Shown piece after piece: positions 74 through 5,537 of a DNA stretch of 5,545 nt (position 1 is the first letter of the stretch; each line of letters starts with the position of its first letter). The notes below the pieces were generated by a model. That model was not told the origin of the DNA and searched no databases. It was given only the letters and a program-made list of their open reading frames with translations. This DNA comes from Candidatus Iainarchaeum sp. (GTDB lineage Archaea; Iainarchaeota; Iainarchaeia; Iainarchaeales; 0-14-0-20-30-16): the NCBI GenBank assembly GCA_903916665.1, contig CAIWXP010000156.1, positions 1 through 5,545 of the forward strand, in the 5' to 3' direction. The position numbers and the translations under genes were made by a program.

Positions 74-775
74 ATGGTAGATAAATTAGTTAGAATCCCT
101 TCTGGTATCCAAGGATTAGACGAATTAATCGAAGGCGGCTTTGAAAAAGGATCTACAATATTAACTTTAGGAACGCCAGGAGCAGGAAAAACTACCTTTG
201 CTCTACAGTATTTATACTACGGGGCAATAAAATATAAAGAACCAGGAATATTTATTACCTTTGATGAATCTAAAGAAGCTCTATTAAAACATCATTTGGA
301 GTATGGTTGGGATTTTGAAGATTTAGAAAAGAAAGGACTATTTTTAGTTTTAGAATATAGGCCACACCAAGTAAATAAATTATTAGAAGAGGGTGGAGGC
401 ATAATTAAAGATGCAATTAAATCTTTAGGTGCCAAAAGATTAGTTATTGATTCAGTAACAGGCTATTCTTTATTATTTAAAGACGAATATCAAAAAAGAG
501 AGAGTATTGTTGATTTATTTGAGCTATTAAAAAAGTGGGGCACAACCACATTAATTACTTCGGAAGATAGTTCTGCAAATAATACTGTTGTTGCTGGTGG
601 AGTAGATTATTTAGCAGATTCCATAATTCAATTAAGATATGAAGCAAATGGCAAAAATATAAATAAACAACACGTAATGGAAATAATGAAGATGCGTGGA
701 ACAAAACATACAAATAAGATTTGTCCTTTTTCGTTTGATGCTCACGGTTTGAGAATCTTCTCAGATTTAATTTAA
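74..775 (+). CDS. Single-domain KaiC-like / RecA-superfamily P-loop ATPase (COG0467-type)
   Basis: 233-aa ORF bounded upstream by an in-frame TAG at 44-46, with its first ATG at 74. By-eye similarity to the KaiC CI domain runs end to end: IPSGIQGLDELIEGG; Walker A GTPGAGKTT; EPGIFITFDES (KaiC EPGVFVTFEET); YGWDFEDLEKKGLFLVLE (KaiC FGWDLAKLVDEGKLFILD); Walker B RLVIDSVT; and MEIMKMRGTKHTNKICPFSFDAHGLRIF (KaiC LEILKLRGTSHMKGEYPFTITDHGINIF). One RecA-like domain only, as is typical of archaeal KaiC homologues. Confidence 0.9.
   Translation: MVDKLVRIPSGIQGLDELIEGGFEKGSTILTLGTPGAGKTTFALQYLYYGAIKYKEPGIFITFDESKEALLKHHLEYGWDFEDLEKKGLFLVLEYRPHQVNKLLEEGGGIIKDAIKSLGAKRLVIDSVTGYSLLFKDEYQKRESIVDLFELLKKWGTTTLITSEDSSANNTVVAGGVDYLADSIIQLRYEANGKNINKQHVMEIMKMRGTKHTNKICPFSFDAHGLRIFSDLI
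170..196 (+). other. Walker A / P-loop (GTPGAGKTT, aa 33-41) of the KaiC-like ATPase
   Basis: Codons gga acg cca gga gca gga aaa act acc encode the GxxGxGKT/S motif. Confidence 0.9.
437..454 (+). other. Walker B-like strand (RLVIDS, aa 122-127; Asp126)
   Basis: A hydrophobic strand ending in Asp, at the position equivalent to KaiC RVSIDS. The catalytic-carboxylate pair TFDE sits at nt 257-268. Confidence 0.75.
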
Positions 776-848: not shown

Positions 849-932
849 ATGTTTTTTAAAAAATTAATTGCTTTTTTATTTTTACTATGTTTTTTAATTA
901 CAACAGTTAACCAATTGAGCTCAATCTATGCG
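849..932 (+). other. Sec-type (type I) signal peptide, predicted cleavage after IYA (aa 28)
   Basis: MFFKK (positive n-region), LIAFLFLLCFLITTV (hydrophobic h-region), NQLSSIYA|QD (polar c-region with small residues at -1 and an A-x-A-like site). Confidence 0.75.
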
Positions 933-3900
933 CAGGATATTCCTGTAACAGTATATGTTGGTACAGAAGGTCCAACGATTGTTTCAGAACAAATATGTTA
1001 TTTGGGAACCTGTGCAAATTATCAAACAATAGATCCAGGTTCACAATTTACTTTAAAAATTCATTTAACAGATATTAATGGTTATTCGGATTTAAATTTT
1101 AATTCTGCAGTTTTACAATTATATTTAAGTACTGATACAAATAATGAAAATGTATTAAATTGGGATCATATAGTTTTAAAACCTAGTAATGATACATTGC
1201 ATTTTAATAATAGGGATGGTTGTATTCAAACAACAGATTATTATTGTTTTAATTTTGATTCAAATTATTGGACAGTTAAATTTGATAAAGGTGCAACAAA
1301 ATTATTTTTTAAAATATTAGATAATGAAGGTAATGAAACAGTTAGTGAATTATCCTACAATGAATTTTCGAGTGGAATTTATGTGAATCAATTTGTTAAT
1401 TTACATGTTGATGCATCAAGCATAACCTATTCTGGGAATCCAGGAAGTACTGTTCCAGCAAATACAAATTTAGATAAAAATTATTTATATTTAACAAATA
1501 CAGGAAATGTGGATTTAAATTTTACTGCTGCACAGAGCGATTTAAATTCAGGAACAAATACAATTTTGGCAAGCAATGTTTTTATAAGAAGTAATAGCAA
1601 TGATAATTCTGTGCATAGTGGAAATTATGCATTATTATTAGCAGGTAATAATGGTCTTCTTGATAATACAATTGTTCAACCAATAAACGGATTAACTTTT
1701 GGAAATTTATATAATTTTAGTTTTTATGCAAAATCCAATGATGATGCAAAATTAGATTATTTATATATTAATGGTTTTACTGAAAACCCTAAATTATGGG
1801 ATTTTAATAGTCATAGTTGGACAGATATGGAACCCGCATTAAAAATATACTATGAATCAGATTTTAATTCCTGGGTTGGAAATATTCCCGATGGTTGGGA
1901 AGAATCAAGTACGGATGGAAGTCCTATATTTCAATCCATATCAGATCCTTTAAAATATCACAACGCTCCCTTTTCTTTAAAAATAACAAGTGGTGAGCCA
2001 GGCCAGGGAGGAATTATAAGAAGATATATTTCAAATATGTCAACAGATACTAATTATACTTTATCCTATTGGGCAAGAGGTGAAAATGGAGGCGAATCAA
2101 CAACATTATATTTATTAAATTCTGATAATAATGAAATATGGTTTTTTACTGGTGATGATGCAAATAGTTGGCAATCCTATTTAGGAGGTATACCTCCTAG
2201 TGGTGCACTATTAACAACATCATTATCAACTAATTTCCAACAAATAACTACAACTTTTATTTCTCCTTCAACTAGTGGGGGAAATGTGCAAGTAAATATA
2301 ATTGGCGAAGTGCAAAATGGTTTTGCGAGTGTTTATATTGATGATTTTGAATTGGCAGATATGGATAGATTTCCATCAGGTAATCAAATTAAAAGTTATA
2401 ATTTAAATGATAATTATAATCAATTTTCAGATGTAATTTCTGCACCAGAAAATGGAATAATAATTCCTTTAATTGCAAATGATAGAGCTGATACTAATAT
2501 GTATGTTGATAATGCATTTTTCGGAACTTTTATTCCAACAGCTTCTACCAATTTAATAGATAATTTTGGTTTAGAAAATTGGTCTCCAATATATATGCCA
2601 GATAATTGGATGAGTATGATTGGAGCACCCTACGATCCAACAAGAACAACAGAATCTTTTGACGGCAACTATGCATTAAAAACAAATGGTAGTAATACAA
2701 ATTTAATAATGTCATCATCAATATTTGCAAATGAAGTTTCGGGGTTAAAAGAAGATGATAATTATATTGGAAGTTTGTACGCAAAAACAAGTTCTAATGG
2801 GAATGTTGTTGTTGCATATTTGGATGGTAATGATATTTGGAATTTTGATACTCATAGTTGGGTTAGACAAGTAAATGGAGAGCCACCATCATCAGAAATT
2901 TATACGATTACTGGTTTGAGTTCTAGCTATGGTCAAAAAATTATTCCCTATGTTACTGTTGCACCAGTTGGACAGATTATGATGATTGTGGGTTCAAACA
3001 ATGATAATGTTTATATTGATAATGTAAATTTACAAAAAGATGGTTCTGGAGATAATATTTTATCCAATGGTAATTTTGAAAATTGGTCTTTAACTGGTAA
3101 TTCATTGGATGGTTTTAATATGTTGGCAAATAATGGAAATGAAATTGCCCAGGAGACAAATCCTAATAATGTTCATTCAGGGTCTAGTGCAGTTAGAATG
3201 TACGGTCCCAATGATGGTCCTGATATTTTAACCTATACAAAAACAGGACTAACTCCTGGTGCAGAATATAATTTTAGCTATTGGGCAAAAACAGATACAA
3301 ATGTAAACCTGGGTGTTGTTTTTGTTAATGGTCAATTTAATAGTGATGATTTAAATATTTTTAATAAAACAACTAGACAATGGGAACATTTTAATTCTAA
3401 TGATGGTCCTGGTGTGGGGATGGACTCTTCATTGTTAGATGATAATTATAAAAATTATATTGTTAATTTTAATGTTATTGTTCCTCCAACAGGAATATTA
3501 ACTGTTGCAATTTTTGGAAGTAGAGATGGAAATATTTATTTGGATGATTTAAGTTTATATTCTAGTAATCCCTCTGGTAATCTAGGATCAAATATTTTAC
3601 AAAATGCAGATTTTGAAGATTGGAATTCAAATGTTCCTTTGAATTGGGTTATGAGTAATAGTGATAGTGATAGTTCAAGTTCTAATACTATTCAACAAAC
3701 CTCTCCTGGAAATGATAGTAATAGTGCAATTAAATTAATTTCATCTGGGCAAGATAATCCAGCCTATATTTCTCAAGATGTAACTGGATTAACTCCAGAT
3801 AGTAATTATATAACTAATTTTTATGGAAGAACTGATTCAAATAATTCAATAGCAGTAGTATATATGGCATTTAATGGTAATCATCAATATTATTGGGATT

Positions 3901-5537
3901 TTACAGGTACAAATGCAAATAATTGGTCTGAGGTAATAACAAACTATTTACAAAATGGAGATTTTGAAAATTATAATGATGGTAATTTTGATAATTGGAC
4001 ATTGATTAATAATGGGCCAGATAATAATGGTCAAGCATTATTTGGTGACAGATATACTAGTCCAAATCATTCTGCAGAATTGATTTCAACATCTGATTCT
4101 GGTGTTGGATTGATGAGTGATCCGGTTTCAATAAATCACGATGTTAACATGCATTACTATTGTAATTTTGTTGATATGGGTATGGGTTCAGCAGCTTGGA
4201 TAATTTTAGTTAATCAAGACATGAATATGATTTATAATGTTCAAAATAGTTCTTGGCAACCAATTGATATGCAAACACAACATCCTGATGAAAATACATC
4301 ATTATACTTTACTATTCCTAATAATGGTGGACAGTTTTCAATGTTATCAAATTATTTTTCCATCCCTATTGATCAAAATATTAAAATGCTGGTAGGAACA
4401 AATGGTCATTCTACTATTCATGTTGATGATTGTACAATAATGGATGTTGCAAATGAAAATAATAGGGGTCCAACAAATGATCAATTTCATTTTATAAATT
4501 TGAATAATAATTATCAAAATTATTCTTCTCCTGCTGTGACTGTTCCACCAAGCGGAAATCTAAGTTTAACATTAGCAAGTTTTTCTCCTGATATTTATTT
4601 AGATGATATTAACATGTCATTAAATGGCGAAGGAAATAATATTTTACAAAATGCAGGATTTGAGGATTGGAATGGTTCAAATCCAGTTGCTTGGAATACC
4701 TCTGATAATCAAAGTAATGGTGGAAACGATGGTGTAAATAATAGCACAAATTATTTATTAAATGGAAATTTTAATGATTATAGTTTTGATACAAATAGTT
4801 TTAATCATTGGGATTCAAAAACAGATTTTATGGGTTCAGGAACAGGAGCTAACTTTACAATGGAGCCAGATGGAAATGGAAGTCCAGGGCATGTGAGATT
4901 AAATTCATTTCCTGATAGTGGAATAACAATGGGCAGTGATCCTGTATATGATTTAGGTCCTCAACTACAATGGAATTATAGTTGTGATTCTTGGGCAAAT
5001 GGTGAAGAAAGGGTATCGGGTAGTTTCATGGCCATAGTTGCAAATGATGGAAATAAGATCTATGATTTTCAAGCACACACCTGGGATGATTGGAATCATG
5101 AACAAGGGTTTTATGGGAATGCGCGATATGAATTTATTAGTAGTGGAATACAAAGTGATCAATCAAGTTTTTCAATGGATTTTAATATAGGTAATAACAT
5201 AAATGGATTAATATTTATAGTTGGGTTGCAGCCTGATAATAGTACATATAAAAGTGTGTATTTTGATAACTGTTCAGTAACAGAATTAAATCAAAATAAT
5301 AACAATAATAATAACAACAATAATAATTCCAATGACTATAATTATTTGTTCAAGATAGAAAGTTCAAATGGAATTCATTTTATTGATCATGGGGGAGAAT
5401 TGATAGGCCCAACAATAGCTAAAGGAATTTATCCTAATTTTGGTGATTTAACCCTACCTTTAGGAATATTTATCCCTCAAAACACTCCCAATGGTACCTA
5501 TTTAGGTTATTTGTCAATAAACGCAGCTCCTGCATAA
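849..5537 (+). CDS. Giant secreted Asn-rich surface/adhesin-like protein with eight CBM4_9-like (galactose-binding-like jelly-roll) modules
   Basis: A 4.7-kb uninterrupted ORF in A+T-rich DNA, where stop codons are frequent by chance. It has an SD-like site upstream, an N-terminal signal peptide and strong internal protein-level periodicity with conserved motifs. The stop is TAA at 5535-5537. The domain-family assignment comes from remembered motif patterns, not from a search. Confidence 0.85.
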   Translation: MFFKKLIAFLFLLCFLITTVNQLSSIYAQDIPVTVYVGTEGPTIVSEQICYLGTCANYQTIDPGSQFTLKIHLTDINGYSDLNFNSAVLQLYLSTDTNNENVLNWDHIVLKPSNDTLHFNNRDGCIQTTDYYCFNFDSNYWTVKFDKGATKLFFKILDNEGNETVSELSYNEFSSGIYVNQFVNLHVDASSITYSGNPGSTVPANTNLDKNYLYLTNTGNVDLNFTAAQSDLNSGTNTILASNVFIRSNSNDNSVHSGNYALLLAGNNGLLDNTIVQPINGLTFGNLYNFSFYAKSNDDAKLDYLYINGFTENPKLWDFNSHSWTDMEPALKIYYESDFNSWVGNIPDGWEESSTDGSPIFQSISDPLKYHNAPFSLKITSGEPGQGGIIRRYISNMSTDTNYTLSYWARGENGGESTTLYLLNSDNNEIWFFTGDDANSWQSYLGGIPPSGALLTTSLSTNFQQITTTFISPSTSGGNVQVNIIGEVQNGFASVYIDDFELADMDRFPSGNQIKSYNLNDNYNQFSDVISAPENGIIIPLIANDRADTNMYVDNAFFGTFIPTASTNLIDNFGLENWSPIYMPDNWMSMIGAPYDPTRTTESFDGNYALKTNGSNTNLIMSSSIFANEVSGLKEDDNYIGSLYAKTSSNGNVVVAYLDGNDIWNFDTHSWVRQVNGEPPSSEIYTITGLSSSYGQKIIPYVTVAPVGQIMMIVGSNNDNVYIDNVNLQKDGSGDNILSNGNFENWSLTGNSLDGFNMLANNGNEIAQETNPNNVHSGSSAVRMYGPNDGPDILTYTKTGLTPGAEYNFSYWAKTDTNVNLGVVFVNGQFNSDDLNIFNKTTRQWEHFNSNDGPGVGMDSSLLDDNYKNYIVNFNVIVPPTGILTVAIFGSRDGNIYLDDLSLYSSNPSGNLGSNILQNADFEDWNSNVPLNWVMSNSDSDSSSSNTIQQTSPGNDSNSAIKLISSGQDNPAYISQDVTGLTPDSNYITNFYGRTDSNNSIAVVYMAFNGNHQYYWDFTGTNANNWSEVITNYLQNGDFENYNDGNFDNWTLINNGPDNNGQALFGDRYTSPNHSAELISTSDSGVGLMSDPVSINHDVNMHYYCNFVDMGMGSAAWIILVNQDMNMIYNVQNSSWQPIDMQTQHPDENTSLYFTIPNNGGQFSMLSNYFSIPIDQNIKMLVGTNGHSTIHVDDCTIMDVANENNRGPTNDQFHFINLNNNYQNYSSPAVTVPPSGNLSLTLASFSPDIYLDDINMSLNGEGNNILQNAGFEDWNGSNPVAWNTSDNQSNGGNDGVNNSTNYLLNGNFNDYSFDTNSFNHWDSKTDFMGSGTGANFTMEPDGNGSPGHVRLNSFPDSGITMGSDPVYDLGPQLQWNYSCDSWANGEERVSGSFMAIVANDGNKIYDFQAHTWDDWNHEQGFYGNARYEFISSGIQSDQSSFSMDFNIGNNINGLIFIVGLQPDNSTYKSVYFDNCSVTELNQNNNNNNNNNNNSNDYNYLFKIESSNGIHFIDHGGELIGPTIAKGIYPNFGDLTLPLGIFIPQNTPNGTYLGYLSINAAPA
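933..1364 (+). other. N-terminal beta-sandwich-like domain with two closely spaced Cys pairs
   Basis: aa 29-172. It shows alternating hydrophobic strand patterns (PVTVYVG, QFTLKIHLTD, AVLQLYL, HIVLKP, YWTVKFD, KLFFKILDNEGNETV), with Cys50/Cys55 (C-x4-C) and Cys125/Cys133 (C-x7-C). The fold class is inferred from the pattern only. Confidence 0.4.
1377..1607 (+). other. NTGN-motif strand region (possible N-terminal half of an Ig-like sandwich)
   Basis: aa 177-253: VNLHVDASSITYSG..NYLYLTNTGNVDLNFTAAQSDLNSGTNTILASNVFI. The x-N-T-G-N-x-D-L pattern followed by L-x-S-G-x-N-x-I is common in prokaryotic Ig-like surface domains. The expected closing P-x-G-x-Y-x-G strand appears only at the extreme C-terminus. 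Confidence 0.35.
1560..1841 (+). repeat. Module A, N-terminal half only (aa 238-331)
   Basis: It has the first five family motifs: a degenerate TILASNVF, then VHSGNYALLLAG, INGLTFGNLYNFSFYAKS, LDYLYING and LWDFNSHSW. It lacks the closing ..Y-x-D-D/N strand. Confidence 0.6.
1842..2360 (+). repeat. Module B, complete (aa 332-504), lying inside module A
   Basis: KIYYESDFNSWVGNIPDGW, FSLKITSG, TNYTLSYWARG, TTLYLLN, IWFFTGDDANSW, loop GGIPPSG, NFQQITTTFISPSTSG, VQVNIIG..SVYIDDFEL. Confidence 0.65.
2361..2525 (+). repeat. Module A, C-terminal half only (aa 505-559)
   Basis: It has only the last two family motifs: YNLNDNYNQFSDVISAPENG and IIIPLIAN..NMYVDNAFF. There is no N-I-L-x-N-x-x-F-E-x-W start. 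Confidence 0.6.
2550..3038 (+). repeat. Module C, complete and uninterrupted (aa 568-730)
   Basis: NLIDNFGLENWSPIYMPDNW, FDGNYALKTNG, VSGLKEDDNYIGSLYAKT, NVVVAYLDG, IWNFDTHSW, loop GEPPSSE, SSSYGQKIIPYVTVAPVG, IMMIVGSNNDNVYIDNVNL. Confidence 0.7.
3054..3560 (+). repeat. Module D, complete and uninterrupted (aa 736-904)
   Basis: NILSNGNFENWSLTGNSLDGF, VHSGSSAVRMYG, KTGLTPGAEYNFSYWAKT, LGVVFVNG, IFNKTTRQW, loop NDGPGVGMDSS, DDNYKNYIVNFNVIVPPTG, LTVAIFGSRDGNIYLDDLSL. Confidence 0.7.
3591..3941 (+). repeat. Module E, N-terminal half only (aa 915-1031)
   Basis: NILQNADFEDWNSNVPLNW, NSAIKLISSG, VTGLTPDSNYITNFYGRT, IAVVYMAFNG, YWDFTGTNANNW. It then runs directly (SEVIT|NYLQNG) into the start of the next module with no closing strand. 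Confidence 0.65.
3942..4445 (+). repeat. Module F, complete (aa 1032-1199), lying inside module E; Cys-containing subtype
   Basis: NYLQNGDFENYNDGNFDNW, NHSAELISTS, VNMHYYCNF, AAWIILVN, IYNVQNSSW, GGQFSMLSNYFSIPIDQN, IKMLVGTNGHSTIHVDDCTI. Cys1105 and Cys1195. Confidence 0.65.
4446..4622 (+). repeat. Module E, C-terminal half only (aa 1200-1258)
   Basis: FINLNNNYQNYSSPAVTVPPSG and NLSLTLASFSPDIYLDDINMSL, i.e. the last two family motifs only. Confidence 0.65.
4638..4748 (+). repeat. Module G-prime: orphan first strands of a module (aa 1264-1300)
   Basis: NILQNAGFEDWNGSNPVAW, then a short N/S/G-rich stretch, then the next module start. The DNA at 4638-4673 matches 3591-3626 (start of module E) at 33 of 36 positions by hand alignment. 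Confidence 0.55.
4749..5285 (+). repeat. Module H, complete (aa 1301-1479); Cys-containing subtype like F
   Basis: NYLLNGNFNDYSFDTNSFNHW, PGHVRLNSFP, LQWNYSCDSWANG, SGSFMAIVAN, IYDFQAHTW, SSFSMDFNIGNNING, LIFIVGLQPDNSTYKSVYFDNCSV. Cys1379 and Cys1475 sit at positions equivalent to the Cys pair of F. Confidence 0.65.
5295..5327 (+). repeat. Poly-Asn tract (11 consecutive Asn; imperfect AAT/AAC trinucleotide repeat)
   Basis: aat aat aac aat aat aat aac aac aat aat aat, lying between module H and the C-terminal tail. Confidence 0.95.
5328..5534 (+). other. C-terminal 69-aa tail with a P-N-G-T-Y-x-G closing-strand motif; no anchor
   Basis: SNDYNYLFKIESSNGIHFIDHGGELIGPTIAKGIYPNFGDLTLPLGIFIPQNTPNGTYLGYLSINAAPA. 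It has alternating-hydrophobic strands but no hydrophobic TM helix, and no LPXTG, PGF-CTERM or PEP-CTERM-like ending. Confidence 0.5.

Follow-up and report, generated by a model that had tools for sequence, protein, structure and literature searches.

The stretch of Candidatus Iainarchaeum sp. DNA analysed here (contig CAIWXP010000156.1, 5,545 nucleotides (nt) in all, referred to as the window) raises the question of whether a protein module can come to lie inside a copy of itself. The window, with a G+C content of ~30%, holds a gene for a KaiC-like ATPase of 233 amino acids (aa) at positions 74-775 and one open reading frame (ORF) of 1562 aa at positions 849-5537. The initial annotation, made from the letters of the window, had described in the product of this ORF a jelly-roll module with seven motifs (m1 to m7), carried contiguously by two modules, C and D, and had proposed that a third, module A, is interrupted by a complete module B. 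The ORF and the quoted motifs are present in the sequence where they had been placed. From the observations below, we conclude, with a probability of roughly 0.8, that the ORF encodes a secreted eight-module protein of the CBM_4_9 type (CBM, carbohydrate-binding module), with a putative role in glycan or cell-surface binding, in which a complete module sits inside the m5-m6 loop of another module not once but twice.

Two split modules in one reading frame

The modules of the ORF were delimited with a family hidden Markov model (HMM) of 169 positions, for which the window protein and its 23 relatives supplied 35 contiguous modules and from which the halves of modules A and E were excluded. The ORF and its modules are as follows; letters followed by -N denote a module's N-terminal part and those followed by -C its C-terminal part.

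849..5537, + strand: secreted-protein ORF with eight jelly-roll modules and without a catalytic domain; 1562 aa in one uninterrupted frame
1554..1841, + strand: module A, N-terminal part (A-N), aa 236-331; host domain as far as motif m5 (family HMM, shuffles, models)
1842..2360, + strand: module B, aa 332-504; complete inserted module
2361..2528, + strand: module A, C-terminal part (A-C), aa 505-560; the host's last four strands
2544..3038, + strand: module C, aa 566-730; contiguous (HMM 1-169)
3048..3566, + strand: module D, aa 734-906; contiguous by the family HMM; holds the best Pfam CBM_4_9 stretch
3585..3938, + strand: module E, N-terminal part (E-N), aa 913-1030; host of the second nest (E = 4.4e-25)
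3939..4445, + strand: module F, aa 1031-1199; complete module inserted in E (E = 3.6e-32)
4446..4622, + strand: module E, C-terminal part (E-C), aa 1200-1258 (E = 1.0e-11)
4629..4745, + strand: orphan stub G-N, aa 1261-1299; m1-m2 only
4746..5291, + strand: module H, aa 1300-1481; contiguous (family HMM, aa 1300-1478 full); nearest to F

Against the family HMM, A-N matches at aa 250-328 as positions 34-113 (E = 5.6e-17), module B at aa 332-503 as positions 2-168 (E = 5.8e-41) and A-C at aa 508-557 as positions 116-166 (E = 1.1e-9). The profile search thus returns the discontinuous outer match, flanking a continuous inner match, that an interruption of A by B leads one to expect, and within aa 238-331 the model finds no equivalent of m6-m7. 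The suggestion of the initial annotation that A becomes complete once B is looped out stands for m3 to m7, whose two halves are complementary, but not for m1-m2, most of which is absent. Modules C (aa 567-730) and D (aa 735-904) give full-length contiguous matches, as had been said of them. We also observed a second nest, which the initial annotation had not described, at window positions 3585-4622 (aa 913-1258), where module F occupies the same m5-m6 loop of module E: E-N matches at aa 914-1029 as positions 1-112, F at aa 1031-1198 as positions 1-168 and E-C at aa 1205-1256 as positions 115-167. Host and insert both match the one family HMM.

The split is recovered by models made from other sets of modules. 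An HMM made from C and D only matches aa 237-326 with its first two thirds, aa 347-502 with nearly all of its length and aa 511-555 with its last quarter, while one made from the window's five contiguous modules places A-N at its positions 41-117 and A-C at 123-171, and E-N at 2-116 and E-C at 119-174. When the sequence of each half was shuffled 1000 times, none of the shuffles reached the real score for any half (real scores of 33-83 bits against maxima of at most 12.5); for A-N and A-C the real scores are 56.2 and 33.4 bits, and the best shuffles score 9.9 and 10.2, respectively. Comparison of the protein with itself agrees: the A/B unit is collinear with the E/F unit at 26% identity, and the joined outer halves of A, as well as those of E, align end to end with the contiguous modules, with the junction falling in the same loop.

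A further fragment, also absent from the initial annotation, is the stub G-N, which matches HMM positions 1-28 at aa 1263-1289 and lies directly before module H. No later part matching it was detected with the family HMM. Over 43 nt, its DNA has 86% identity with the start of E, compared with 65-77% for other m1 copies. The stub could have been left over from a third nest, or could be a partial copy made more recently. The C-terminal 68 aa of the protein were considered as the completion of G-N and rejected, since they carry no family signal (-2.5 bits, a score reached by 603 of 1000 shuffles).

The same break point in distant relatives

An exhaustive HMMER search of 1.84 billion representatives with a profile of the two nested units (E <= 1e-3) yielded 23 detectable relatives, and the module subfamily is therefore rare. 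By the family HMM, five of the 23 have the split pattern of N-terminal part, full module and C-terminal part; the rest contain ordinary tandem or single modules. In three of the five, the pattern is simple, with parts at aa 472-587, 590-756 and 758-817 in P0001, at 85-208, 209-374 and 380-435 in P0005, and at 41-144, 157-320 and 332-380 in P0015. The fourth, P0003, has one nest in the usual loop and one in another loop, broken between HMM positions 83 and 93, with parts at 824-910, 920-1087 and 1105-1183; by eye, this protein ends in peptidoglycan-binding-like repeats. The fifth, P0002, is nested at two levels: an outer N-terminal part (107-218) is followed by a second N-terminal part (219-328), a full module (332-492), a C-terminal part (499-550), another full module (555-737) and, finally, a C-terminal part (743-792), such that the loop of the outer module takes up a nested pair and a further complete module, ~520 aa, before the outer C-terminal part is reached. 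The pattern of P0002 was re-derived from its phage contig (L032, positions 6759-11048). Together with the window protein, the five relatives contribute eight nests in six proteins with the same break point, between HMM positions 113 and 115, and seven nested units from the six proteins could be aligned collinearly.

Other searches added no relatives. Metagenome DNA scanned with the A/B and E/F units gave none, and word-indexed homologue searches with the whole protein, with aa 236-560 or with the nested-unit alignment gave nothing useful, probably because Asn-rich words saturate the candidate list.

Two kinds of protein make up the subfamily: phage tail-fibre-like proteins, which lack signal peptides, and proteins secreted by uncultured organisms. 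A SU10_adaptor gene is present on the contig of P0002 and on that of P0005; P0005 shares 99% identity with a gene of an IMG/VR contig and, in its N-terminus, matches a virion structural PHROG, while P0015 has a weak match to a tail-fibre PHROG. Judged by sequence, at least two of the split-pattern relatives, P0002 and P0005, are phage-encoded. A phage tail fibre or receptor-binding protein is recognized by a structural gene module around it and by the lack of a secretion signal, as holds for P0002 and P0005; the window protein has a signal peptide and, within its 5.5 kb of context, a cellular KaiC-like neighbour. It has no PHROG match, and its aa 236-560 gave no tblastn match in the phage collection.

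As to age, pairwise identity among the modules of the window protein is 15-31%, and between each host and its own insert it is 17-25%; there are no direct DNA repeats flanking the inserts, and the longest direct repeat is 43 nt. From the divergence of host and insert and this lack of longer or flanking repeats, we take the nests to be old. Both halves of E are closest to module D (28% and 38.5% identity), which is what two parts of one domain would show. Among the phage proteins, outer modules lie 5-8 identity points nearer to the subtype formed by the first module of a tandem pair than to that of the second. No such first-of-tandem signal was found for A and E of the window protein, and identity is ~20-22% whether outer and inner modules are compared within their own class or across classes; with an identity matrix this flat, the spread of one ancestral nest and repeated hits on one loop cannot be told apart. 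More than one insertion event must nevertheless be assumed for the family, given that P0003 uses a different loop and the nest of P0002 has two levels, and by the break of P0003 at 83/93 the sequences indicate at least two independent insertion sites.

Predicted fold and competing explanations

In CBM4-type jelly rolls the first and last strands are neighbours, and this is why a whole module can sit in a loop of another. The insertion point would be the surface loop between m5 and m6 (HMM 113/115); the host's first approximately eight strands and its last four would meet around it to make one jelly roll, and the insert would form a separate lobe of its own, the second of the unit, tied to the host through two short linkers.

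We predicted the structure of aa 236-560 with AlphaFold2 from a seven-row alignment of nested units (mean predicted local distance difference test score (pLDDT) 81.0, predicted template-modelling score (pTM) 0.61). The model is all-beta, with eight strands in the outer N-terminal part, 13 in B and four in the outer C-terminal part. Confidence is highest in B (block pLDDT 84-93); it is 69-90 in the outer C-terminal part (region residues 281-325), and in the outer N-terminal part blocks reach 79-89, falling to 45-62 over the first 20 residues. Against the Protein Data Bank (PDB), Foldseek matched the model to CBM22, CBM16, CBM4-2, CBM61 and CBM4 structures with template-modelling (TM) scores of 0.65-0.69 normalized to the target and 0.32-0.37 to the query; the high target and low query values mean that one of the two lobes is matched at a time. 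When the two halves of A were joined with B left out, in a construct of 152 aa that was aligned with 32 contiguous modules, AlphaFold2 predicted a single compact domain with a pLDDT of 87.3 and a pTM of 0.81, whose Foldseek matches to single-domain CBM61, CBM16, CBM22 and CBM4-2 structures (TM 0.53-0.64) run over 140-160 columns, that is, over the whole length. The strands are in equal positions in the joined and nested models, with the C-terminal part offset by exactly 173 residues. The structure predictions are in favour of the reading of the initial annotation, and the joined construct, together with the unchanged secondary structure, supports a model in which aa 236-331 and 505-560 make one jelly roll. 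More generally, the all-beta models and the Foldseek scores of 0.53-0.69 lead us to describe the modules as predicted beta-jelly-roll sandwiches of the CBM4/16/22 type. A PDB sequence search with module D returned only spurious fibronectin matches.

Several points weigh against this reading. Contact between the halves of A in their native context is deduced from the joined construct rather than seen directly in a model, and the pTM of 0.61 leaves the orientation of the lobes in the nested model uncertain and their rigidity not established. The alignments given to AlphaFold are shallow (seven rows for the nested unit, 33 for the joined halves). Module A, at ~152 aa and with its match starting only at HMM position 34, may be a weakened domain. 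Finally, no close orthologue of the window protein was found in the collections searched, and there is thus no pair of sequences with and without the insert to compare.

The short N-terminus of A is also what would be expected if aa 236-331 and 505-560 were unrelated, decayed remnants of tandem modules that serve as linkers around B and do not co-fold, and the partnerless stub at aa 1263-1289 is evidence that the protein does retain fragments. We nevertheless regard such decay as improbable: the two pieces of A are exactly complementary, independent decay would not repeat the order of N-terminal part, full module and C-terminal part with the same break point at eight nests in six proteins, the halves, once joined, are confidently predicted to form one jelly roll, and both outer parts are modelled with good confidence in the nested unit as well, apart from the first 20 residues. 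It is more improbable still that the parts have exchanged partners, such that A-N and B's C-terminal strands pair, as do the N-terminal part of B and aa 505-560, to give two intertwined hybrid sandwiches. All parts are of one family and a hybrid pairing is sterically conceivable, but B matches contiguously over the full length and is the part of the model with the highest pLDDT, the joined halves of A are confidently compatible with each other, and the common affinity of both E halves for module D fits one co-evolving domain. An origin of the scrambled module order in misassembly or a chimeric contig is hardly credible. The gene index has no entry for either the window protein or its neighbour, and no second copy of the contig was found; however, the ORF is a single uninterrupted run of 1562 codons, the same order occurs twice in the window and again in five proteins from independent JGI, Logan and IMG/VR data, and with no direct repeat longer than 43 nt there is little to mislead an assembler.

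A more serious contender accepts the nests and gives them no purpose: the loop would merely tolerate insertion, and the protein would be an ordinary multi-CBM adhesin, or its modules only spacers. Tandem arrangements are commoner than nested ones among the relatives, and the pTM of the nested model shows no fixed geometry between the lobes, both of which are in keeping with neutrality. Against it, the nests are old by their host/insert identity, yet both halves of the hosts are still recognizable and complementary, and their retention in six proteins, including one nested at two levels, suggests selection to keep the host foldable. We consider neutral nesting possible, though we do not favour it. 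Our preferred explanation therefore remains that of a complete module inserted twice into the m5-m6 loop of a host that would fold around it.

Known systems, possible function and the rest of the locus

The Pfam family CBM_4_9 (PF02018; CAZy CBM4/9/16/22-type, CenC-like) matches the 1562-aa protein in four stretches (E = 1.9e-11, score 44.9 bits, cut-off 25.9), and no other Pfam family was matched. The region at 1554-2528 (aa 236-560) alone gives E = 7.9e-11 and 42.9 bits, with module B as its best stretch. Neither the E/F unit nor the 303 aa at the end of the protein (aa 1260-1562, including H) have a direct Pfam match; F and H match the family HMM. The window protein shares with CBM_4_9 a Pfam score above the threshold, the motifs at the start (NGxFE...W) and end (YxDD) of the modules and the predicted fold; it differs in that its subfamily is very divergent and rare and has no PDB sequence match. 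The modules contain conserved aromatic residues. Known CBM_4_9 modules have been described as terminal, in tandem, or inserted in catalytic domains, as in a GH5 enzyme (PMC9063844), and not as inserted in another copy of themselves. The initial annotation had known of no homotypic nesting of this module type, and our search of the open-access literature likewise turned up no account of one CBM_4_9 module within another; as a general claim, however, the novelty does not hold, because a domain inside its own paralogue is known from the PH1N-PH2-PH1C arrangement of myosin X (PMC3216653). The nesting is a homotypic domain insertion in a known module family, that is, a variant of existing domain-in-domain designs and not a new principle.

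Myosin X is the closest parallel, in that a paralogous insert splits a domain whose halves refold around it to give two lobes with a double tether. It differs in its PH fold, its eukaryotic cytoplasmic setting and its lipid ligand, and rigidity and cooperative binding have been shown there (PMC3216653), whereas here they would be inferred. The pneumococcal pilus adhesin RrgA, in which D3 lies inside D2 and D2/D3 inside D1 (PMC5333627), is likewise a secreted adhesin with beta-sandwiches made from N- and C-terminal halves around inserts, the halves of which can reconstitute the sandwich, and its two-level nesting recalls that of P0002; its hosts and inserts are of different families, however, isopeptide bonds stabilize its fold and it is not a CBM. 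In the 'evolved' Dit proteins of siphophages (PMC7291167, PMC9437275), CBMs sit in loops of a galectin-like domain. These too are beta-sandwich CBMs in a loop of another beta-sandwich within a host-adhesion protein, in the phage receptor-binding context that several of the relatives share; unlike the nests described here, they are heterotypic (a BppA-type CBM in a galectin domain), have long linkers and use as host domain a structural component of the baseplate. A survey of the ECOD classification found domain insertion in 20% of multidomain proteins, with recursive nesting among the known cases; only 65.8% of insertion events cross homologous groups and 34% do not, and inserts are consistently smaller than their hosts (PMC13114784). 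The nests of the window fit the A1-B-A2 definition of that survey, but their inserts, at 167-173 aa, are as large as or larger than their hosts (~152-177 aa) and are a clean exception to the reported size rule; a search of its text and supplements yielded neither a CBM nor a jelly-roll case.

As regards function, the modules probably bind glycans or cell-surface structures, and we propose that the protein is a putative secreted adhesin. This role is suggested by the lack of a catalytic domain, by the phage receptor-binding-type relatives and by the frequency of CenC-like modules in phage tail proteins. Multi-CBM proteins are usually seen as beads on flexible strings that gain avidity from loosely linked copies. 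In a nested unit, a double tether would instead fix the lobes relative to each other, and with them the geometry of two putative binding sites, making a bivalent unit; by analogy with the myosin X supramodule, we infer such a fixed lobe geometry here, which, if true, would be a different route to multivalency. The nested unit is a building block that recurs in a rare module family, which the window protein shares with phage tail-fibre-like proteins. A bolder version, which we put forward only tentatively and hold to be doubtful, is that the nested CBM pair is a conserved, transferable, recursively nestable, doubly tethered and geometrically fixed bivalent supramodule for putative glycan binding rather than a single accident, with two levels in P0002 and two copies in the window protein, and that it is shared by phage receptor-binding proteins and by surface adhesins of episymbiotic DPANN-type or other uncultured microbes for the recognition of glycans on host cell surfaces.

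The case is of interest for the evolution of protein architecture and for CBM engineering. CBM4-2 is the basis of engineered binders, and the m5-m6 loop, used at the eight nests, is a naturally permissive insertion site in this widely used scaffold; if the supramodule idea were true, it would be a site validated by evolution for rigid multi-CBM scaffolds. Annotation pipelines will call nested hosts truncated or partial CBMs, and recognizing the split pattern avoids miscounting modules. The occurrence of one rare module family in phage tail-fibre-like proteins and in a DPANN archaeal surface protein hints, at the level of sequence, at shared hardware for cell-surface recognition.

The remaining features of the window are the following.

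74..775, + strand: KaiC-like ATPase, upstream context gene (Pfam KaiC, E = 3.3e-58)
849..932, + strand: Sec-type signal peptide, aa 1-28 (MFFKK...SIYA, then QD), identified by eye from the sequence
933..1553, + strand: N-terminal region, aa 29-235, without a family match in family-profile and module-HMM searches
5292..5330, + strand: poly-asparagine linker, aa 1482-1494
5331..5534, + strand: C-terminal 68 aa, without similarity to the module or to any family

The best Pfam hit of the N-terminal 207 aa that follow the signal peptide has E = 0.056, and no module HMM matches them. The linker at aa 1482-1494 is Asn-rich and includes a run of 11 asparagines. The C-terminal 68 aa resemble no Pfam or NCBIfam family and show, by eye, no transmembrane segment or known archaeal sorting signal. 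The upstream gene encodes a single-domain KaiC/RecA-like ATPase that is closest to the NCBIfam family KaiC_arch_3 and is 73% identical to a protein of a Ca. Diapherotrites metagenome-assembled genome (MAG) and 54-60% identical to proteins of Ca. Iainarchaeum MAGs. By this one neighbouring gene, the window most likely derives from an Iainarchaeota/Diapherotrites-like DPANN archaeon. None of 31 loci with KaiC homologues, from DPANN and other archaeal MAGs, has a gene of the module family nearby, and the large gene is therefore not syntenic with KaiC.

Modules F and H, which are each other's closest relatives, are the only modules of the window with a cysteine in m4 (HYYCNF and NYSCDS, respectively) and another in m7 (VDDCTI and FDNCSV); both cysteines are missing from the remaining modules. 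The parts that bear these cysteines lie at positions 4200-4445 in F and 5070-5291 in H, and the m4 and m7 residues could form a disulfide between the two strands.

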